From the NCBI GenBank assembly GCA_017499595.2, contig CM039010.1, forward strand, positions 1,922,001 to 1,986,000: 64,000 nt of DNA. Direction: 5' to 3'. Shown here piece after piece: positions 47,669-60,449 of this stretch. Position 1 is the stretch's first letter; each line of letters begins with the position of its first letter. The notes beneath the pieces were generated by a model. The model saw nothing but the letters and a program-made list of their open reading frames with translations. It was not told the origin of the DNA and ran no database searches. Source of the DNA: Psilocybe cubensis (lineage: Eukaryota). A program made the position numbers and the translations under genes.

Positions 47669-50225
47669 ATGCCCGACGCTTTTTTCGCAGGGACGAAGCA
47701 GCGCAAGCGGAAGCGCTCCGATGCAGAGCCACGGCATGGCGTAAAAAAGTTCGCTCGAAAGCCGCAGCATGGTTCAGACAAAGTCAACGCAAAACCAAAC
47801 TCAAAAGCAAAGCCAAACCCAAAAAAACGCAGGGACGAAGAGCTCTCAGACCAAACCGACTCTGATGGCGTCGGCGCAGTAGACGACATGGACCTCCGCG
47901 CCGACTCTGTCGACCCCAACGCAAGCGATGCAGAGGAAGATGAAGACGAGACGCCAGCTGAGAAACGGCTGCGGCTTGCACAGTTGTATTTGGAGAGTGT
48001 TAAATCTGGCTTGGGTGCGTCTTTGTTTTTTTTTCTTTTGAGATTTGTGGTTTTTGACGGAGGAATGCCATTCATTTTGATTGGGATGTGTGTGTGATGC
48101 AGCGGAGGGCGAGTTCGATGCGGCAGAGGTGGATAGGGAGTTGATCCAGGCGCGACTTAAACAAGATGTACTCGAACATTCGGGCAAAGCGCATTTATTC
48201 ATCGCAGACTCTGTACGTTGCCTTCCCTCCCCTCCCTTCCCATCTTTCTACACGCACCACACCATCCGATCTCTGACTTTCTCCTTTTTTTTGCTCTGTG
48301 TGTTTTGTGCTTTGTATTTTGCGTGACAGTTCGACTTTACCCAACCGCCCACATCCGTCCTGCGCACGCGCGGGCACAGGCTGTCCGTCACATCCGCCGT
48401 CGCGTCCGAGTCGGGCTCAGGCCCTTCCACTGCCTACCTCTTCACATCCGGTAAAGAGGGACATATCATCAAATGGGATTTGTGCACGGGTAAAAAGGTC
48501 GCTTCGCTCTTTAAACTTCGGGACCCCGCCTCTGCCTCTGTCGATGCCCCAACCAACGGCAATGGCAAGGGGAAAGCGCAGGGGAAGGGGAAGGGCAAAG
48601 GGAAGGGCAAAGGCAGAGCGCCCCCGGACGCGGCGGTGCCAGGACACACGGACGAGGTGCTCGCGCTCGCGCTGAGTGGCGACGGGAGGTACCTCGCGAG
48701 TGCGGGTCGCGATCGCCGCGTGTGTGTATGGGACGCGGCGCGTGCGGAGTGGGTTAAGTCGTTCTGTGGGCATTTGGGGCATAAGGATGCTGTGAATGTA
48801 CGTGTTGCTCTTTTTTTTTGTTTTGATAAAATAATACAATGCGCAATGCTTATTGACTTGTTCTTTTTACATCACGACATGACATATACATATACAGGCC
48901 GTAAGCTTCAAAAAGGGGACAAACCAGCTCTACTCCGCCTCCGCAGACCGCACACTCAAAGTATACGACCTCACGCCCTCCGTGCTCGGCTACGTCGAGA
49001 CATTATTCGGGCACCAAGACGGCGTACCCGCACTCGACGCTCTGCGCGGGGACACGTGCGTCAGCGTCGGCGCGCGGGACAAGACGGCGCGGTTTTGGAA
49101 GATTGTGGATGAGACGCAGTTGGTGTTTAGAGGTGGAGGACGGAGTAGGGTGCGGGAGGTGTTGGAGGGGGGGTTGAGGGGGGATGAGGAGGGGAGTGAG
49201 GATGAGGAGGGGGAGGAGGAGGAGGGGGAGGGGGTGGATGGGAAGGGGAGTGGGGGTGGGAATGGAAAGGGGAAGGGGAAGGGGAAAGAGAAGAAGTTTG
49301 TAGAGGGCAGTTTGGAGAGTGTGGCGATGATTGACGAGACGACGTTTGTGAGTGGTGGTGATAGCGGGTATGTTTCTTCCTCTCTCTCTCTCTCTCTTTT
49401 GTTTTTGTTGGGATTTCTTGGTTGTTAATGCGTGTCTGTGTAGCTCGATATGCCTTTGGAGCACGCTGAAGAAAAAACCGGTGTTCACGCAGCCGCTTGC
49501 GCATGGGTTCAACGAGGTGCTGTCCGAGTCGGAGGGCGTTATTAAGACGCCAAGGTGGGTTACTGCTCTAGGCTGTCTGCGCTACTCGGATATCTTTGCT
49601 TCCGGTACGTCTACACTCCATTCCATTCCACCACTTTCCCTACCTCCAAAAGTTACGTGAATACATGCTGACGACGTTGCTTGTTTACCTGCTTTTACTT
49701 TACTTTTTATTTTATTTTTTATTTGTATTTGTAGGATCTTGGGACGGTGAAGTGAGGCTATGGAAGGTAGATGCGAAGCTAAAGTCGTTTAGTCTCGTCG
49801 GGACTGTCTCCGTTCCTGGCGTGATCAACTCGCTGCAGCTGCTGAGCACGACAAAGGCGTTTTTAGAGGCTACTACCTGGGGCTCGCCCTCCTCTTCCTC
49901 GTCTTCCTCTTCCTCTTCCTCCTCAGCAACGACAACGCAAAAAGACATTGATATGGACCCGACTACAACAACGACAACGACAACGACGAGTATGAACAAG
50001 AAGAAGCCGGCAGAGGTACCTGTGAACCCGTTCATACTCGTCGCGGGTGTAGGGCAGGAACATAAGCTTGGGCGGTGGTTGAGTGTGAAGCATCAGCCGC
50101 AGCAGCAGCAGCAGGGTGAAGGAGAAGGAGGAAACGACGGCGGTGCTGCTGCGCGGAACGGCGCGGTTGTGTATGCGTTTTGGCCGCGGACGTTGGGTTC
50201 CTCTTCTCCCTCTTCGTCGTCGTGA
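47669..50225 (+). CDS. RRP9: U3 snoRNP-associated WD40 protein Rrp9 (multi-exon)
   Basis: ETPAEKRLRLAQLYL, GHTDEVLALALSGDGRYLASAGRD, YVETLFGHQD, VSVGARDKTARFWKIVDETQLVFRGG, VAGVGQEHKLGRW. Confidence 0.94.
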
Positions 50226-50829
50226 TTTTTTTGTTATGATTTTATGACTTTTTTTTTTTCGTTTGTTGTTGTCGTTGTCGTTGCTTTACCACCTACCATT
50301 TCATCTTTTTTTCTACTATCTCTATTCTTTGGATATCACTTTTTGTTTCCTCGCTTGTGTTCGTGGGGCGTCAGCGCGTCAGCGATGATGATGATGATGA
50401 CGACGACGACGTTTTAGGATGTGCGCTGCTGAGGACCAGGAGGCCAAGGTTGTGATCGTGATCGGGTTTGTGTGGTGTGGTGTGGACAAAGTCAAGTCAC
50501 ATTGTGGGTTTGGGGGCGTGCCAAAGAATACCATTAATTTGGATGTGTTGTGCAATTCTCTCCTCTCTCCTCTCCTCTCCTCCACACACTGTGGTTTATT
50601 ACACCACGCCCGTTACCCGTACCCGAGCGATCTCTCTCAATCTCCGTTATTATTATCGTACTATTGTGCTACTACTACTACTAGTCCCGCCCGCCCCACG
50701 CACCGCCGCGCTGCGCAACGCCAAAAGCAAAAGAAATACAAAGGATTATTGAGATTTATCAGGGGAGGTGTATACGTCTGAAGAATATCAGTATAGAACT
50801 CGGAACGCTCAAGCGTTAAAGGCGGGAAG

Positions 50830-51495
50830 CACTGCGGGCGCCGACTGCTATAAGTTAAACATACAGCAGTAAACTTACATGTCTTATGTAAGTTTAGGTG
50901 TATGTTCAACTTACAGCATATGTGTCGGGAAAACAAAAATTTAACAAAGACATATTGTGTTTGGTGGCTGTATGCCGACCAAACACAATTACTGTAAGTA
51001 GCCTGTAAATAGAATAAACACCTAAATTACACAAATTGTGTTTGTCCGGTGTTAGTAAAACATACACATTTTCTGTAAGTAATACAAACAGCACTTACTG
51101 TAAGTAAAAATTACACACAAAGAAAACAATTTGTGTATGTTATACTTACACAAGTTTTTCAATTCATTTAATGGTGTAAGTCTGACATACACAAATAGTG
51201 TTCTTTGTGTGTAAATTTTACTTACAGAAAGTGCTGTTTGTGTCATTTACAGATAATGTGTATGTTTTACTAACACCGGACAAACACAGTTTGTGTAATT
51301 TAGGTGTTTATTCTATCTACAGTCTACTTACAGCAATTGTATTTGGTCGGCATACAGCCACCAAACACAATATGTCTTTGCCGAGTGTTTGTTTTTCATA
51401 CACGTGTGCTGTATGTCGAACTTACAGCGAAACTTACATAAGACATGTAAGTTTTCTGCTGTATGTTTAACTTACAGCGGTCGGCGCCCGCAGTG
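50830..51495. mobile_element. Non-autonomous CACTA/CMC-type foldback element (MITE, 666 bp)
   Basis: Begins CACTGCGGGCGCCGAC and ends GTCGGCGCCCGCAGTG. Imperfect inverted arms of about 295 bp. 3-bp TSD AAG at 50827-50829 and 51496-51498. Confidence 0.9.
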
Positions 51496-51684
51496 AAGGC
51501 GGGAACTCAACACTTCGATTCTTCGATTCGACGACGCGGACCACAAGCCACTGAGAACGCGAAAATATAAGACTATACAAAACGCACACACGCACGCACA
51601 CACAACCAAAGGCGAGCGAGAAGGGGTATACAATTATACAATCATACATCTACACACTACCCTACCCAACCCCAACAACAAATA

Positions 51685-54600
51685 ATGCTCAAACAGCTCT
51701 GCGCCGCGGCGCGCCGCGCGCTCGCGTTCGTGCACCCCGCGATCCTGTTCGTGATCATCATGGCGCTGCTGATAGTGGAGTGTTTGGACGCGCGGGCTGC
51801 TGTGGCGGGGATTGGGTATTACGCCTCGAGTAGCGGGGCGGGGGCGGGTGTGGATGGAGTAGGGGATGGGGCGGGGAATGGGGTGGGGAATGGGGATGGG
51901 GGGGATGAGAAGGATGAGAGGGAGAGGGAGAGGGCGAGGGTGGAGGCGAGGAGGGTTAGGGTGAGGATCCATGAGAGGGGTGTGCAGGTTAGATTTGGGC
52001 GGGAGCCTGAGCGTGAGCCTGAGCGTGAGCGGGAGAGGGAAGTGATGGGGAGGGGGAGAAGGTGCATGTGTGTAGGCGGGGAACGCGAACATGCGCGCGT
52101 GCGTATGCGCGGTGTGCGCAGTGTCCGGCCGCGTGTGAGTGGGGAAAGTGCGAGTCGTCGTGCGGATCTGGGGATTCCTGCTTCGATTCCAGCTCCAACT
52201 CCAAATAGAATTCCAACGCCAACTCCAAATAGAATTTCAACTCCGACTCGAATTCCAACTCCAACTCTAAATCCAACTCGAATTCCAACTCCAACTCCAA
52301 ATCCAACTCGAATTCCAACTCCAATTTCAATTCCAACTCCAATTCGAAATTCAATTCCAACTCCAAATCCAAATACAACAACCAATCCACATAGCAATCC
52401 AAATGGACGTTCGGGCCCGCTGCGCAAGACCAAGGGCGGGGACGGTATCAAGAAAAAAGTTGAGCACAGGGTACGTTTCTCTTTGCTTATTCCATGAGAA
52501 ATTTATCCAACGCGGGTATTAATTGGTTAATTGGGATTCTTTTTTTTCGTTTGTGGGGTCTTAGGATGTAGCTTTGCAAGTTGATCTTCGCGAGCTCGAA
52601 TCATCCTCACCCACATCAACAAAATTGAACGTGAACGACGAGGAGAATACCCTCGTTGGATGCAGGGGAGAGTGTCATGGACGTGGATGCGGCCAAAATG
52701 CCTCGAATGAGAATGAGAAAAAGCGCGTGCTTGAGAGTAATGTTGTGGAAGTCAAGGTGTGTTGTTAACATTTGTTTGTGTTAGTTATGGCCCCATGGGC
52801 GCTTATTGAGGTGCGCTAGGATGTGTGTGTCCAGGTTGATCCGGTTGAGTTGTCCGGAGTAAAGATAGAGGAGGAGGAGGAAGGTAAAATGAAAACGGCA
52901 CGTATGGAGAAAGGAGATGATGACAGGTCGGGTGAAGAAGAAGGAGGACAACATGAGAGCAGGATTGTAGAGCTCAAAGTAAGCTTTCAATTTGACTGTC
53001 TGTATGGGCGTTTGTTGAACGGTGCGCTGTGGTTTAGGATGTGTATGTTCAGGTTGATCCACCAGAGATTGTGCCTGAAGTCAAGGTGGAATTCAAGGTC
53101 TGCGGTTTTTGTGTTTACTTTCTGTTTTGTGCTTGCTGAAGAGATTTTGTGTGAAGGATGTGGCTTTACAGGTTGAACCGCTTGAGCCCTTATCAGAGAC
53201 AACGATCGAAGTCAAAACTGTCGAGCCGTGTGTTGAGTCTCTGCCCCGAACCGAAAACGATTTCGTACCGGGATTTCACAGGAAAGTGGAGGTCAAGGTA
53301 AGTTGTTTTTTTTACTTCCGTTATGGGCGCTTATTGGTCGGCGGTATTGTGCTAGGACGTGTGTACCCAGGTTGATCTTCTCGAGTCGGTATCAGAAATA
53401 AACGAGGAAAATACACCAACAGAGCTGCTTCTAGAAACAAAAGAACAGGTTCCCCATGAAGAATATAGCCTTAATCCCGGAAAGCAACGGGAACGCGAAC
53501 ATGATGTTAGTCTGCTACAGGTAATTCGACGTATCTCAGATTATGATTTCTGGTCTTATCAATGGATTTCTTATTAGGAAACTCCGTGCAACTTGGGATT
53601 CCTCTATGAATCAGAAGAAGAACGGTCTGCACAAAATGTGCGTAGATCAACATTCGACATTATTTCAGCGTTGTCAAAGTCTTATCTTTTTAGGTTATGG
53701 ATGGTGGGTACATTGGAATGTCGATATTGCATCCTGATACTGCGGTGCTATTTGAAGTAGGTGCTAATGTCACTTTTTGCGAAAGCGTACCCGTTAACTT
53801 TTGAGATAGAGAACTAGAGCGACAGTTAAAGATGACGAAGAGATACCCCCGGATGCGTTTGTAGACGATGTTGGAGTAGGCACTTTTGAGCACGAGAGAC
53901 TCATGAAAACACGCGTCACGCCTCTCGGCAGGGTAAGCCCCTCATCGTTCATTCTACATCGTCATTGTATTTTAACGACTGAGCAATGCAAAAAAGTCTG
54001 CTTCGCGATTTAGCTCGACTGTCTACTTCCGACCCACCAGATCCACATCCACATCCACATCCACATCCACAATATCCCTTCCTTCGGTGCTTAACGTGAC
54101 GCCAATTGAAATACCAGACAAGGCGGATACTGCAAACACCCAGCCTTCTCCAGGTGTAGTGCCACCTGTTAGTAGTACGTCTGAAGCTGGAGCAGCAGTC
54201 AGGTTTGCGGAGGAGGAGCCAGCGATAGCGCGATTGAGTAAATTGCCTGCTTCGTTTGGTGTGCCGATCGTTGAGGCTTTGTATAAGCACCCGAATGGGG
54301 AGCCGGCGAATGTGCTTCAGTCGACGATGGGGGAATCAACAACAACGATAACAACTCCACCTGCCTCGCAGTGTAAGTCGGGTGCAGCAGTGGTAGAAAC
54401 GCAGCACGATGATGATAGAGCAAATGGCAAAGGTACACCCCGAGTCCCGGCGTCCGCGTCCGCGTCGGGCACCTCGCTTCATCCTACTACTAGTACTAGT
54501 ACTAGTAGACCTCACCAACCAACGCGGATCCCAGTCCCCTCACGCATAGGAAGGCCAAATCACAGGAACAGTAAACCTGTACCCGTTCAATCAAGTCATG

Positions 54601-54791
54601 CTTCCGAGTCCATCGCCATCGCCATCGACAACAACAAAAACAAAAACAAAAACGAAAACGCTCCTGCGATCCCAGAACCTTATTCCAGCACTTCTTATTC
54701 TTCGAGTTCCTCGCAGCATGTCGGCACACCAGCCCCGACATTTTGGAATCCTGCCCCGGGGCTCAAAGTGACGATTAAAGCTCCGAGGTGA
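51685..54791 (+). CDS. Hypothetical low-complexity protein: N-terminal hydrophobic segment, IPTPTP repeats, tandem DVxxQVD exons
   Basis: Phase-0 exons 51685-52470, 52565-52756, 52820-52978, 53038-53097, 53157-53297 and 53356-53520 all have GT-AG borders and open frames. The later exons are less certain. Confidence 0.7.
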
Positions 54792-55182
54792 ATGCCAGTG
54801 ATAACTTGTTTAAATTAGTCTAGATCTGGTGGTGTTGGTTTCTTTTAGATGTGTATCTTTCGATTCTTGTATGTATTTAGTTCCATGTTTCGCGAATCGC
54901 GCGTGTGAAATACGGTTGGCAATTTGGGCGCTTGCCTACATGTGGGTTTAAAAAAAGTCAACAGGCGACGAATACCGATCGAAAAGGCTATTAATAGCCG
55001 AACGACTCGGACATATCACGTGTATGTTCAGTTTGGTGGCACCCAAATGGCGCGCCGTGGATTCTTGTTCTACATCGACAAAGGAATTCCTCCTGCTTGA
55101 CATGTTTACCTGGCAGATTCTTGTATCTCGATAATATTCTACCAATTTTTACAAGAGACACCCCACCCAGTTATTTAAAATC

Positions 55183-57467
55183 ATGATTCGAACTGACGAT
55201 CCTTTCATACCTGTTCTCCGACGATTTTTGGAATCAGGTTACGAGCCTTTCACATCATATAGCTCCTATAATCCTGATCCCGAGCATCCTCTCATATTCC
55301 ATGACAGACATATCGCTTCTGCTCTGCTGCTAAAAACCGTCAAGCATGCGCCTTGGATTACGAAAGAGCTTTCCAGTCTTTGCGAGGACACCATCAAAAA
55401 CTTCACTGCGGCAGGGCACAAATTTATTGAAAATCGCAACTACTGGGAAAATTTCTGCCGGCCTTCTGAGTACGTCAGCTATTGCGATAATATAGCAGAA
55501 CGGCACTATGCTCGCACCAGCATCCCCTGCAATGCGTATGCCTCAAAGTTGCTCTTCAGCCCGAATGACCCACTCTGGTTTAGCTTCATTAATGTACGTA
55601 TAAGCGGATCTGAATGTCCTTCCTTTGGCTGCACTGGTGATACTGCCATAATCAAACCTGAAGGGGAGGATACAGGCGACAGGCAATTCAAAATTCCACC
55701 CGAAACTCGGTCGACGCTGGACAATCGCGCACTATCAAATCTCAACAAGCTCAGGGACATGGAAAATATTTTTAATTACGAATTTTTTGTTGCGACTAAA
55801 ACGGCGGAGGCTTTACTAGACAGGATGAGTTGCTGGGGGGAATTCAAGTGGGAGATGCCTACAGTCACAGGCGCTCCGGTGTTGCAAGCCTCGCTCCCTG
55901 GGAAAGACTCGCCTTTTATTCAGTCTCTTTTTCCACTTCTAGGTGTGGAACCCCTTCGTCCTTTGCCCATACACATGGGAACTTCCTCTAGAAAGTCTGC
56001 CCACGCCCGCAAGGTTGTAGCTCCACTGACAAATACTCGAAGGGCCGAGTCGAAATATAGGATCAATGTCCACCATTACATCCAAAAGGTAAGTTTTACC
56101 GCATCGATCATAACATTATTCTTATGTTTTGGCCAGGCGTGGCAAAATGCAGTGCACACAGATGCGACGTTTATTGTTTTTTCCTGTGGCAGACAGGAGA
56201 GAATTGCCATTCGACATCGTCAAAGCCAGACTCTGTTTTTGTCGGATTTGATTGATCCCACAAAAATACCTGGTTATCGAAAGATACATCTTGGCCTTAC
56301 AATCGCCGCCATCAAGGATCGATTAGAAAGGTGGGATCCCATAGAAGTTGAAAACCGGCGTCCTTCAAAACGTAAAGACCCTCCAGGGTATTTAAATATT
56401 TATAACAGTATGAAGGACAAGGCGACAAGAAGGAAGCGAAGGCGATTAAATCCCGAATTGGGGCTTACTTCTGTGGAAATGGATAAAAAGGTCTGCTGCG
56501 TTTTCTTGCGAGTATCACATCTTGCCAATGGCAAATTTTTAGGCATTCGACGATGAGCTAGCCAAGCGGGACTTGGTGCTTTTCTATCTGAATTACTCCT
56601 ACATGAGTTCACCAGCACCGTCTTCATTTCGACGTATGGAACCTTCATGCGCATCGCGTCCCTTCCAAAACCATTCATACCATTTCAAACGCAAAGCGTC
56701 ATATTCACCAGCAAAATATATCTTGGCGACTACATACCAGGATGATATTGGGAGTGGAGCAGTAGGATTGGTATACAGAGTCACGGTCGAGATTGAAATA
56801 GAGGATGGGTCAAAACATCAGCGCACACTCATTCTCAAGCTTGCTATTGGCAACAAAAAGGATCAAATTATTCAAGAATACGAGATCTACAAACGGTTGG
56901 CCGAAGCTAATGCTACGTATGGAATTGTTGGCGTCCACGGCCTATTTCACGATATGGAAACGGATGCTTTGATGATGATCATGGATGATGGAGGGATGTC
57001 GCTGAGAACTCGCGCCATTGAAAAAAAATTAAAGATTCATTATGATTGGGATGATTCAGTTGAGACGACGGAGAAAGAACGGTACATATCTCTTCAACCC
57101 AGTATGCATTCATTTCTGACTCTTTTCCAGGGATGCCTTTACCAAGGCTCTTAAAGGCATCCACCATGCGCACGTAATCCATCAAGACATTAGGATTGAC
57201 AACTTGATGATTAATGATGCTGGCGATGTTTTCATAATCGATTTCGATAATGGTAGATATGACCCCCTCCATGAGTCATTCGAGTACGAAAGAGATTTGG
57301 AAGAACTATTGACTGCAATTGGGTGGCTGGATAGCGACGACGACACAAGTGAATCAGATGAAGATGAAGATGAAGATGAAGATGAAGATGAAGATGAAGA
57401 TGAAGATGAAGATGAAGATGAAGATGAAGATGAAGATGGGGGCGAGGAGCATGGGGACCAAACGTAA
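55183..57467 (+). CDS. Atypical protein kinase-like protein, copy C (4 exons)
   Basis: Near-identical to copy B. HQDIRIDNLM, IIDFD, and an expanded (GAAGAT)n tail at 57357-57437. Confidence 0.87.
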
Positions 57468-58216
57468 ATGGTGTACGAAAATGTCAGTGACCATTCATAG
57501 ATCTGAAGACTCACTAAAATCCCATTATTTCCATCAATACCTAATAACAAGATGACATGCCCACGGTGTCGCTGTGCGATATTCTGCGCGGCAAATAGAT
57601 CTCCTTCGGTCCGTTGTCGACTCGTAGACCTGAATATAGACCTTGGAGGGGCTTTTTGGTAGATGGAACCACAGCACCTAGGAGATTTTCAGAGTTGTTC
57701 AAACGACAGGAAACGAAGATCGCTGACTGGCTAGTACTGATATCCTCCAATGAGTTCTTGTACATCATCAATGAGTTTCGCGTCTCGCGTCTCGCATTTC
57801 GCGAAACCGTTCATCGGACAGAGCATCGAGGAGATGACCACATGGTTTGACTTGAAAACCACTAAACTTCAGACTATCGGAGATTTAAAAAAAATTAGCC
57901 TGTACCTGCCCCTGTTTTGGGAAAATTCAGCGCAATGTTTTTTTTTGCACATAACATTGTGGGCGCTTCCCGACAATGTGGGTTTAAAAAAGTCAACCGC
58001 AGGCGACATTGAATATATACCGATCTGACTGTTGGTTGATAAGGCTACGACATATCACGTGTATGTTCAGTTTGGCACCAAATGCCCTGCTGTCGATTCC
58101 TGCTCTACATCTACAAAGGAATCCTCTTGCTTGACATGTTTACCTGGCAGACTCTGGTATCTCGATAATATTCTACCAATTTTTACAAGAGCCACCCCAC
58201 CCAGTTATTTAAAATC

Positions 58217-60449
58217 ATGATTCGAACTGACGATCCTTTCATACCTGTTCTCCGACAATTTTTGGAATCATGTTACGAGCCTTTCACATCATATAGCTCC
58301 TATAATCCTGATCCCGAGCATCCTCTCATATTCCATGACAGACATATTGCTTCTGCTCTGCTGCTAAAAAACGTCAAGCATGGGGCTTGGATTATGAAAG
58401 AGCTTTCCAATCTTTGCGAGGACACCATCAAGGACTTCACTGCGGCAGGGCACACATTTATTGAAAATCGCAATTACTGGGAAAAATTTCGCCGGCCTTC
58501 TGAGTACGTCAGCTATTGCGAAGACATAGCAAAACGCCACTTTGTTCGCACCAGCATCCCCTGCAATGCTTATGCCTCAAAGTTGCTCTTCAGCCCAAAT
58601 GACCCAATCTGGTTTAACTTCATTAATGCACGTCTAAGCGGATCCCACATAGCCCGTCGTTCCTTTTGCTGCACTGGTGATACTGCCATAATCAAACCTG
58701 AAGGTGAGGATACAGGCGACAGAAAATTCAAAATTCCACCCGAAACTCGGTCGACGCTGGGCAATCGTGCATTATCAAATCTCAACAAGCTCAGGGACAT
58801 GGACAATATTTTTAATTACGAATTTTTTGTTGCGACCAAAACTGCAGAGGCTTTACTAGACAGGATGGGTTGCTGGGGAGAATTCAAGTGGGAGATGCCT
58901 ACAGTCACAGGCGCTCATGTGTTGCCTGCCTCGCTCCCTGGGAAAGACTCGCCTTTTATTCAGTCTCTTTTTCCACTTCTAGGTGTGGAGCCCCTTCGTC
59001 CTTTGCCCATACACATGGGAACTTCCTCTAGAAAGTCTGCCCACGCCCGCAAGGTTGTAGCTCCACTGACAAACACTCGAAGGGCCAAGTCGAAATATAG
59101 GATCAATGTCCACCATTACATTCAAAAGGTAAATTTACCGCAGCGCTCATAACATTATTCTTATGTTTTGGCCAGGCGTGGATAGATGCAGTGCACACAG
59201 ATGCCACGTTTATTGTTTTTTCCTGTGGCAGACAGGAGAGAATTGCCATTCGACATCGTCAAAGCCAGACTCTGTTTTTGTCGGATTTGATTGATCCCAC
59301 AAAAATACCTGGTTATCGAAAGATACATCTTGGCCTTACAATCGCCGCCATCAAGGATCGGTTAGAAAGATGGGATCCCATAGAAGTTGAAAACCGGCGT
59401 CCATCAAAACGTAAAGAGCCTCCAGGGTATTCAAGTATTTATAACAGTATGAAGGACAAGGCGACAAGAAGGAAGCGAAGGCGATTAAATCCCGAATTGG
59501 GGCTTACATCTGTGGAAATGGATAAAAAGGTCTGCTGGGTTTTCTTGCGAGTATCACATCTTGCCAATGGCAAATTTTTAGGCATTCGACGATGAGCTAG
59601 CCAAGCGGGACTTGGTGCTTTTCTATCTCAATTACTCCTACATGAGTTCACCAGCACCGTCTGCATTTCGACGTATGGAACCTTCGTGCGCATCGCGTCC
59701 CTTCCAAAACCATTCATACCATTTCAAACGCAAAGCGTCATATTCACCAGCAAGATATATCTTGGCGACTACATACCAGGATGATATTGGGAGTGGAGCA
59801 GTAGGATTGGTATACAGAGTCACGGTCGAGATTGAAATAGAGGATGGGTCAAAACATCAGCGCACACTCATTCTCAAGCTTGCTATTGGCGACAAAAAGG
59901 ATCAAATCATTCAAGAATACGAGATCTACAAACGGTTGGCCGAAGCTAATGCTACGTATGGCATTGTTGGCGTCCACGGCCTATTTCACGATATGGAAAC
60001 CGACGCGCTGATGATGATCATGGATGATGGAGGGATGTCGCTGAGAACTCGCGCCATTGAAAAAAAATTAAAGATTCATTATGATTGGGATGATTCAGTT
60101 GAGACAGCAGAGAAAGAACGGTACATATCTCTTCAACCCAGTATGCATTCATTTCTGACTCTTTTCTAGGGATGCCTTTATCAAGGCTCTTAAAGGCATC
60201 CACCATGCGCACGTAATCCATCAAGACATTAGGATTGACAACTTGATGATTAATGATGCTGGCGATGTTTTCATAATCGATTTCGATAATGGTAGATATG
60301 ACCCCCTCCATGAGTCATTCGAGTACGAAAGAGATATGGAAGAACTATTGACTGCAATTGGGTGGCTAGATAGCGACGACGACACAAGTGAATCGGATGA
60401 AGATGAAGATAAAGATGAAGATAAAGATGATGGTGACGGTCAAGCGTAA
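58217..60449 (+). CDS. Atypical protein kinase-like protein, copy D (4 exons)
   Basis: Tandem with copy C (starts 3034 bp apart). The C-terminus DGQA and 3' flank match copy B. Confidence 0.87.

Follow-up and report, generated by a model that had tools for sequence, protein, structure and literature searches.

A short peptide motif reiterated across five phase-0 splice junctions of an orphan gene in Psilocybe cubensis

Introduction

What is a short peptide for when it is rebuilt, almost unchanged, at five successive splice junctions of one gene, and how did such an arrangement come about? These questions are raised by a locus of the fungus Psilocybe cubensis. The window, by which we mean the whole stretch of DNA analysed, comprises 64,000 nucleotides (nt) of contig CM039010.1 (positions 1,922,001 to 1,986,000 of assembly GCA_017499595.2), and all positions below are counted from its first letter. 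Within it, one forward-strand gene of a eukaryotic, fungal type (51685-54791) assembles the peptides VEHR/DVALQVD, VEVK/DVCVQVD, VELK/DVYVQVD, VEFK/DVALQVE and VEVK/DVCTQVD, in which the slash marks the border between two exons.

A sequence-only reading of this locus had proposed that these peptides are binding sites for the dynein light chain LC8 (LC8/Dyn2), carried by a possibly membrane-anchored scaffold. Yeast Nup159 is one multivalent LC8 client, and we know of no such client in which the motifs are distributed one per phase-0 exon. Here we describe the gene model, the splicing of the junctions and the conservation of the motif, and we weigh what the array might do. The explanation that we favour, with a probability of roughly 0.45, is that the gene would encode an extracytoplasmic multivalent array of a strand-forming linear motif, carried on an acidic, disordered chain that follows a secretory signal or anchor.

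Results

A motif conserved at the amino-acid level

The conserved block proved to be longer than first noted and reads V-E-x-[KR]/D-V-x-x-Q-V-[DE]-[PL]-x-E. When the window was searched for AARGAYGTNNNNNNNCARGTTGA with at most one mismatch, five matches were found in the 64 kb, all of them at the five acceptors, compared with a mean of 0.01 in shuffled sequence (n=100); the motif recurs far above chance. With regard to the part that corresponds to an LC8-type octamer, seven of the eight residues (-4 to +2) are supplied by the downstream exon, and the upstream exon contributes just the K/R at -5.

In the nine codon columns that are kept, third positions vary in 7/9 cases and first or second positions in 1/18 (Fisher p 0.0003), a contrast that is partly circular as the columns were chosen by amino-acid identity, and in the nine flanking codon columns all first and second positions vary. 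The silent variation within the motif involves Val (GTT, GTG and GTA), Glu (GAG and GAA), Asp (GAT and GAC) and Gln (CAA and CAG). Because silent sites have diverged while the residues stayed, selection appears to act on the peptide and not on the bases and, judged from its codons, the motif is kept at the amino-acid level. The linkers between the motif copies are acidic and 20-64 residues long. For every one of the six exon pairs long enough to compare, the score was equalled or exceeded by at least 20 of 300 shuffles, which agrees with the earlier description of the exon interiors as unrelated and of variable length (60-192 nt).

Gene model and use of the junctions

The annotated counterpart of the gene is the hypothetical protein JR316_0013323 [Psilocybe cubensis] of 842 amino acids (P0001), which was 100% identical to the translated last exon (53997-54788) in a word-index protein search. 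Five public sequencing runs contain this part of the window and, to follow the splicing, contigs of four of them (X1-X4) were placed on positions 51400-55200. X1 and X2, which belong to one study (P1), are labelled 'RNA? (a guess)' and no run is on record as RNA; both were taken as transcript assemblies because spliced joints are present in them and absent from the DNA-like runs. A single X1 contig of 2,251 nt contains eight GT..AG joints, corresponding to the first eight introns and including all five motif junctions, while X2 contains three of the eight (53295>53354, 53637>53694 and 53756>53810), of which the first is one of the five motif junctions, and has a loose contig end at 53521 that carries on into exon 7. 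The five junction peptides are therefore present in the sequence and spliced as they had been read. X3 and X4 contain none of these joints, and their contigs read through the introns (X3 over 52625-54031, X4 over 51997-53995). The ninth intron we infer from the coordinates of the X1 contig itself, in which 83 letters lie between two pieces, together with P0001.

The start codon is the ATG at 51685, there is no ATG further upstream as far as 51495, and the spliced frame is open through to the stop codon at 54789-54791. All nine introns are of the GT..AG type, in phase 0 and 53-94 nt long, and the internal exons measure 192, 159, 60, 141, 165, 60, 63 and 123 nt, every one a multiple of 3. The phase-0 GT donors of the five motif junctions are located at 52471, 52757, 52979, 53098 and 53298, and the acceptors at 52564/52565, 52819/52820, 53037/53038, 53156/53157 and 53355/53356. 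The features of the gene, with the evidence for each, are as follows.

51685..54791, forward strand: coding region, 10 exons, 847 codons and a stop; RNA-supported model.
52459..52470, forward strand: end of exon 1, VEHR, the upstream half of repeat 1; sequence.
52471..52564, forward strand: intron 1, 94 nt, GT..AG, phase 0; joint 52469>52564 (cut +1) in the X1 contig.
52565..52756, forward strand: exon 2, 192 nt, begins DVALQVDLRE and ends VEVK; spliced contig and sequence.
52757..52819, forward strand: intron 2, 63 nt, contains the 14-nt box ATGGGCGCTTATTG at 52795-52808; joint in X1.
52820..52978, forward strand: exon 3, 159 nt, begins DVCVQVDPVE and ends VELK; spliced contig and sequence.
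52979..53037, forward strand: intron 3, 59 nt, box copy with 2 mismatches at 53004-53017; joint in X1.
53038..53097, forward strand: exon 4, 60 nt, begins DVYVQVDPPE and ends VEFK; spliced contig and sequence.
53098..53156, forward strand: intron 4, 59 nt; joint 53094>53154 (cut +3) in X1.
53157..53297, forward strand: exon 5, 141 nt, begins DVALQVEPLE and ends VEVK; spliced contig and sequence.
53298..53355, forward strand: intron 5, 58 nt, exact box copy at 53323-53336; joint in X1 and X2.
53356..53520, forward strand: exon 6, 165 nt, begins DVCTQVDLLE; spliced contig and sequence.
53521..53996, forward strand: exons 7-9 (60, 63 and 123 nt) with introns 6-9, phase 0; X1 joints, two also in X2.
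53521-53577, 53638-53693, 53757-53809 and 53933-53996, forward strand: introns 6-9; contigs and P0001.
53997..54791, forward strand: last exon, 264 codons and a stop, S/T/P-rich and polymorphic between strains; identity to P0001 and strain differences.

At junction 5, P0001 reads ...VEVK/VDLLES, which corresponds to an in-frame CAG/G acceptor at 53370/53371, 15 nt downstream, and the loss of DVCTQ. Both transcript-like contigs use the upstream acceptor 53355/53356 at this junction, and the public JR316_0013323 annotation appears to omit five residues (DVCTQ) of the fifth repeat. An in-frame AG/G acceptor at this distance, formed by a CAG codon for Gln followed by G, is found in 4/5 copies, one of which is the one used by the annotation, and a 15-nt shift would in these four remove exactly DVxxQ. 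Judged from the exon lengths and the spliced sequence, skipping any of exons 2 to 5 would preserve the frame and re-form [KR]/DVxxQV[DE], so that the earlier claim that every skip keeps the frame and rebuilds a motif holds for these four exons. As to the isoforms themselves, neither exon skipping nor use of the acceptor 15 nt downstream was seen in the contigs, though contigs drop rare variants.

Origin of the repeat units

When the units were compared by local alignment of their DNA, all ten pairs scored above the maximum of 100 shuffles, and the similarity was focused on the acceptor and the 3' portion of the intron. The 14-nt box occurs three times in the window, where 0.33 copies would be expected, and all three lie in introns of this gene (2, 3 and 5). 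It overlaps CTTAT, which we take to be a possible branch site. In the remainder of the introns, identity (0.47-0.74 over 32-58 columns) is hardly above what alignment noise would give.

Tandem duplication of symmetric exons is a known route to repeat proteins. In agreement with such a duplication, the exons are multiples of 3, the introns are in phase 0 and the units are homologous, introns included. It differs from the usual picture in that the likeness in coding sequence is limited to about 42 nt around each intron, whereas the exon interiors are unrelated and their lengths uneven. The anatomy of the gene belongs to this known kind, a symmetric-exon duplication repeat protein with a conserved short motif, and its simplest history, as the alignments suggest, would be an old tandem duplication of an exon-intron unit, after which everything was replaced but the motif and a piece of the intron. 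Introner-like spread of an intron was set aside: within the window the box is confined to this gene, and the units follow one another in tandem, in the same orientation and always in phase 0.

It is conceivable that the motif has no binding role and is a relic of the duplication, kept alike by gene conversion or by the needs of splicing, such as signals at exon ends and starts or a branch-site box, in a young, fast-evolving orphan gene. The fact that the DNA similarity has its centre at the intron and its borders instead of in the exons would fit this explanation, as would the box that is common to 3/5 introns and the simple DNA repeats that make up exon 1. However, conversion or a nucleotide signal would keep the bases, and here three Val codons and both codons of Glu, Asp and Gln are used for unchanged residues. 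Splice signals normally extend just 2-3 nt into exons, whereas the motif reaches 12 nt upstream and 30 nt downstream of the junction, and the near-noise identity of the introns outside the box also argues against upkeep at the DNA level. We consider a relic without binding role quite unlikely.

An acidic chain, predicted to be disordered, behind a hydrophobic N-terminus

The repeat region (residues 258-481 of P0001) contains 25% D+E and has a net charge of -29. It is preceded by simple R/E and P/T repeats (residues 46-257) with a net charge of +17. Structure was predicted with AlphaFold2 (AF2) from the single sequence, as no alignment was possible, and this yielded a mean predicted local distance difference test score (pLDDT) of 35.5, with 797/842 residues below 50. 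The sole confident element was a helix comprising residues 2-43, and strands were predicted solely at residues 94-96 and 99-101, the site of the sequence HERGVQVR in exon 1. The whole repeat region has a pLDDT below 50 and no secondary structure in this model, which may reflect disorder. Two further features of exon 1 are relevant here.

51721..51777, forward strand: hydrophobic segment, residues 13-31, LAFVHPAILFVIIMALLIV, followed by ECLDARA/A (here the slash marks a possible cleavage site); candidate signal anchor or signal peptide.
51970..51993, forward strand: HERGVQVR, a sixth [TVI]Q[TV] anchor, away from the junctions, with G at -2 and R at +2; anchor scan of exon 1.

Residues 13-31 have the highest Kyte-Doolittle mean over 19 residues (2.84) and form the single strongly hydrophobic stretch of the protein. 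Membrane topology can be read with the positive-inside or charge-difference rule, and signal-peptide cleavage with the (-3,-1) rule. The flanks of the segment carry charges of +4 on the N-terminal side (amino terminus counted) and -1 on the C-terminal side, and the charge rule, applied by hand, suggests that the protein begins with either a type II signal anchor or a long signal peptide that can be cleaved. Since an N-in/C-out anchor or signal-peptide cleavage is predicted, the remaining ~800 residues would be lumenal or extracellular. The suggestion that the protein is membrane-anchored is thus borne out as far as the strongly hydrophobic N-terminal segment goes, but the flank charges predict that the repeats face away from cytosolic LC8.

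The RNA-like contigs do not cover 51677-51879 and, because of this, the N-terminal coding part rests on the annotation and on synonymous polymorphisms. At least 71 differences between strains were found, and among the 40 listed there are 30 coding single-letter changes. In exon 1, 7/7 of the listed changes are synonymous, including 4/4 in codons 8-34, and because of this pattern we conclude that the N-terminal exon is real coding sequence under constraint. In the last exon (codons 650-830) there are 8 synonymous and 13 non-synonymous changes among those listed, a near-neutral ratio that would suit the fast-evolving gene assumed when the motif is regarded as a relic. At 52439-52654, which comprises intron 1 and the start of exon 2, X3 has two contigs, one identical to the window and the other with 17 substitutions and 5 gap letters over 216 nt, which suggests two diverged haplotypes, from either a dikaryon or a mixed sample.

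A protein with a signal-like N-terminus and tandem repeats might also be a secreted precursor that is cut into peptides, either of the Kex2-processed kind or of the kind that gives rise to ribosomal peptides, and the motif would then be the core that is released. Kex2-processed secreted repeat proteins are known from fungi, Rep1 of Ustilago being an example, and the Psilocybe protein resembles Rep1 in that a signal-like N-terminus is followed by tandem repeats without a known domain; the short core is conserved and a basic residue stands just before it. However, this residue is a single K or R followed by D, the repeat region contains one KR (in EKKR, residues 312-315), and the five dibasic [KR]R sites of the whole protein include none at the repeat borders, unlike in the Rep1 type. 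The linkers are moreover long and unrelated, in contrast to the near-identical units of known precursors. A role as a peptide precursor is therefore highly improbable.

Comparison with LC8 sites

As a reference for LC8 binding we used Table S4 of PMC6607443, from which 79 validated binders and 32 anchor-bearing non-binders were counted by eye. In this table, K/R at -5 is present in 17/79 binders versus 0/32 non-binders, D at -4 in 31/79 versus 7/32, and D/E at +2 in 37/79 versus 6/32. Valine occupies -1 in 6/79 binders and +1 in 5/79, and all five binders with V at +1 carry G at -2. The VQV anchor occurs in 2/79 binders, as does Y at -2, and both the TQV anchor and L at -1 occur in 0/79; the tabulated non-binders include IQKMLQTD, with L at -1, and PRFQTQVD, with a TQV anchor. 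The same paper also reports that a bulky hydrophobic residue at -2 hinders LC8 binding (PMC6607443). In LC8 complexes, according to PMC3078936, the side chains at +1, -1 and -3 lie in a hydrophobic groove, and K/R or an apolar residue is preferred at -5. PMC5746249 states that ~2% of all human octamers are positive on an LC8 matrix. For the placement of peptides in the LC8 groove by AlphaFold, the score thresholds published in PMC12057147 have false-positive rates of about 5.5-8% and false-negative rates of 20-28%.

Three of the five junction copies fit the [T/V/I]-Q-[T/V] anchor (VQV, VQV and TQV) and the other two have LQV. Flanks that favour LC8 have a hydrogen-bonding residue (often D) at -4, a strand breaker (D, E or P) at +2, no bulky hydrophobic side chain at -2 and no proline ahead of the anchor. 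D at -4 and D/E at +2 are present in all five copies, and there is no proline between -5 and -1. From copy 1 to copy 5, position -2 reads A, C, Y, A, C and position -1 reads L, V, V, L, T, so -1 is among the least conserved core positions, whereas D at -4 and V at -3 are invariant. KDVCVQVD has the same residues as KDTGIQVD of nNOS and KDLGIQVD of DNMT3A at -5, -4, 0, +1 and +2, and differs from them at -3, -2 and -1.

If LC8 is the partner, the repeats would be cytosolic, and the five motifs, or six if HERGVQVR is counted, would bind LC8/Dyn2 dimers that zip two chains into a ladder, as in ASCIZ or Nup159; the valency of such a scaffold could be changed by phase-0 exon skipping or by the in-frame acceptors 15 nt downstream that are present in 4/5 copies, one of them used by the annotation. 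Several features suit this explanation, such as the K/R at -5, D at -4 and D/E at +2 that are commoner in the tabulated binders than in the non-binders, the close match of KDVCVQVD to two of these binders (PMC6607443), the hydrophobic groove geometry (PMC3078936), which V at -3, the residue at -1 and V at +1 would fit, and the spacing of the motifs, 20-64 residues apart in a region without predicted structure. However, the Leu at -1 of copies 1 and 4 and the TQV anchor of copy 5 are found in none of the 79 binders and each has a counterpart among the non-binders, and A, C or Y replaces the G at -2 of the binders with V at +1, where bulky hydrophobic residues hinder (PMC6607443). With -1 variable and D at -4 and V at -3 fixed, the conservation is also the reverse of the anchor-centred conservation seen in LC8 clients. 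Resemblance to an LC8 site is in itself weak evidence, given the ~2% of human octamers that score positive (PMC5746249).

The closest known relatives of the motif in form are the LC8 sites of the xQV class listed in PMC6607443, namely those of nNOS and DNMT3A given above, LSIGIQVD and QSVGVQVE of GKAP/DLGAP1, and ISTGVQVN of ATMIN. The candidate motif shares Q at 0 and V at +1 with these sites, most of which carry D/E at +2 as here, two of which carry D at -4 and two K at -5, and which, as eight-residue strand motifs, resemble the candidate motif in its region without predicted structure. They differ from it in having G at -2 and I/V at -1, where the Psilocybe copies have A/C/Y and L/V/T, and the predicted topology parts the Psilocybe motifs from LC8. 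The proposed likeness to LC8 sites thus stood for the xQV class as such, but not for the two LQV anchors and the lack of G at -2. The multivalent clients ASCIZ/ATMIN (PMC5963919, PMC10046861) and KANK1 (PMC12803091) likewise carry copies of a short motif on a disordered chain with unequal linkers, and in the case of KANK1 the chain is attached at the membrane. These clients keep a TQT-type anchor and vary in the flanks, whereas the Psilocybe copies have constant flanks and a variable -1. The clients are cytosolic or nuclear, whereas the Psilocybe array is predicted to be outside the cytosol.

This last point bears directly on LC8, since the rule-based topology (+4/-1 flanks, ARA/A) would place the repeats in a different compartment, either by an N-in/C-out orientation or by signal-peptide cleavage. 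On balance the residues and the predicted topology disfavour LC8 as the partner, and a cytosolic LC8 ladder seems unlikely. Very unlikely is a more specific form of it, a fungus-specific membrane-anchored LC8 ladder with its disordered part in the cytosol, whose five or six K-D-V-x-[V/T/L]-Q-V-D sites would be removable singly by exon skipping or the 15-nt acceptor shift, so that splicing would set the valency; if true, it would widen the known LC8 anchor set to LQV.

Homologues and family searches

Word-index searches with the last exon against longer proteins, and with residues 250-600 against near-length and shorter proteins, returned P0001 itself or nothing. A phmmer search against 1.84 billion representatives gave 35 hits with E <= 0.001, and the 34 non-self matches were rejected as relatives, being all confined to the low-complexity residues 34-302. 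A metagenome scan matched 594 pattern stretches, of which 0 were confirmed, and the ESM Atlas gave no usable neighbour. Pfam reported no family on exon 1, exon 2, exon 6 or the last exon. Rfam, run on 50500-55500, had no match in the gene, and a full-text literature search for the locus tag JR316_0013323 found no paper. By these searches the gene is lineage-restricted, an orphan in every one of them and so far seen only in Psilocybe cubensis, and the lack of a homologue in the searches made would also be expected if the motif were a relic in a young gene.

Neighbourhood of the gene

The 5' untranslated region of the gene is closely preceded by a foldback element of 666 nt (50830-51495), whose two 322-nt arms show 90% complementarity and are separated by 22 nt. 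All seven Rfam matches in 50500-55500 fall on this element, far below the gathering score, and these sub-threshold matches are to hairpins (microRNA precursors) only. The element is missing at this site in all four runs, the contigs passing from 51495 into sequence at about 50797-50826. Its word depth in X3 is ~5,400, against 50-100 nearby, and because of this it is taken to be a high-copy element. X3 also has a joint between opposite strands, 51418<>55013. Shortly after the end of the gene, at 55042-55165, contigs of X3 and X4 skip ~121-122 nt (ends CC..CC or CA..CC), probably because strains differ here by an insertion or a polymorphic repeat.

The upstream neighbour (48327-50225, forward strand) encodes WD40 repeats, which were recognised by the Pfam WD40 family in two open reading frame pieces (E 4e-12 and 1e-8), and it carries Gly/Lys-rich and Ser/Thr-rich simple inserts. 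Downstream, two tandem near-identical gene copies are found on the forward strand (55135-57467 and 58169-60449). Their open reading frames begin with YSTNFYK(R/S)HPTQLFKIMIRTDD... and have at their other end a kinase-like stretch, HAHVIHQDIRIDNLMINDAGDVFIIDFDNG, together with an acidic tail of D/E, and Pfam assigned no family to the pieces tested (55135-56553 and 56543-57151).

Discussion

The spliced gene at this locus carries five copies of a peptide that is kept while its codons and its surroundings have changed, and the explanation that we tentatively favour is an array of this motif outside the cytosol. The lineage-restricted gene, transcribed and spliced, would encode a protein of ~847 residues with an N-terminal hydrophobic segment followed by ~800 residues without fixed structure. 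Its five tandem phase-0 units would descend from a duplicated unit made up of an exon end, an intron and an exon start. In each of them a linear motif of 14 residues, amphipathic and of the strand type (V-E-x-[KR]/D-V-x-x-Q-V-[DE]-x-x-E), would have been preserved by selection, and the linkers would have been replaced until no likeness was left. Each copy may dock as a beta-strand, with V at -3, the residue at -1 and V at +1 on one face, either onto a partner or onto other copies. The array would be displayed on the surface of the hypha or within the secretory pathway, and because it is most likely located outside the cytosol, the partner would be other than LC8.

A number of points weigh against this explanation. 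The low pLDDT comes from a single-sequence prediction, which is weak evidence for disorder, and the orientation of the N-terminus was derived from a charge rule. The R/E-rich stretch of net charge +17 that follows the anchor is, in our judgement, unusual for a secreted protein. The part of exon 1 that encodes the hydrophobic segment falls in the region that is missing from the RNA-like contigs. Finally, the motif seems to match LC8 sites (K/R at -5, D at -4, Q at 0, V at +1 and D/E at +2) more closely than would be expected of an unrelated motif.

If the motifs did bind LC8, the gene would represent a new multivalent client in a basidiomycete, the LC8 motif would be extended to residues other than Gly at -2 and possibly to a Leu anchor, and the gene would be a clean case of exon structure setting the number of docking sites. 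If, as we favour, the array is extracytoplasmic, it would be an example of a young orphan gene building a repeated linear motif through exon duplication.

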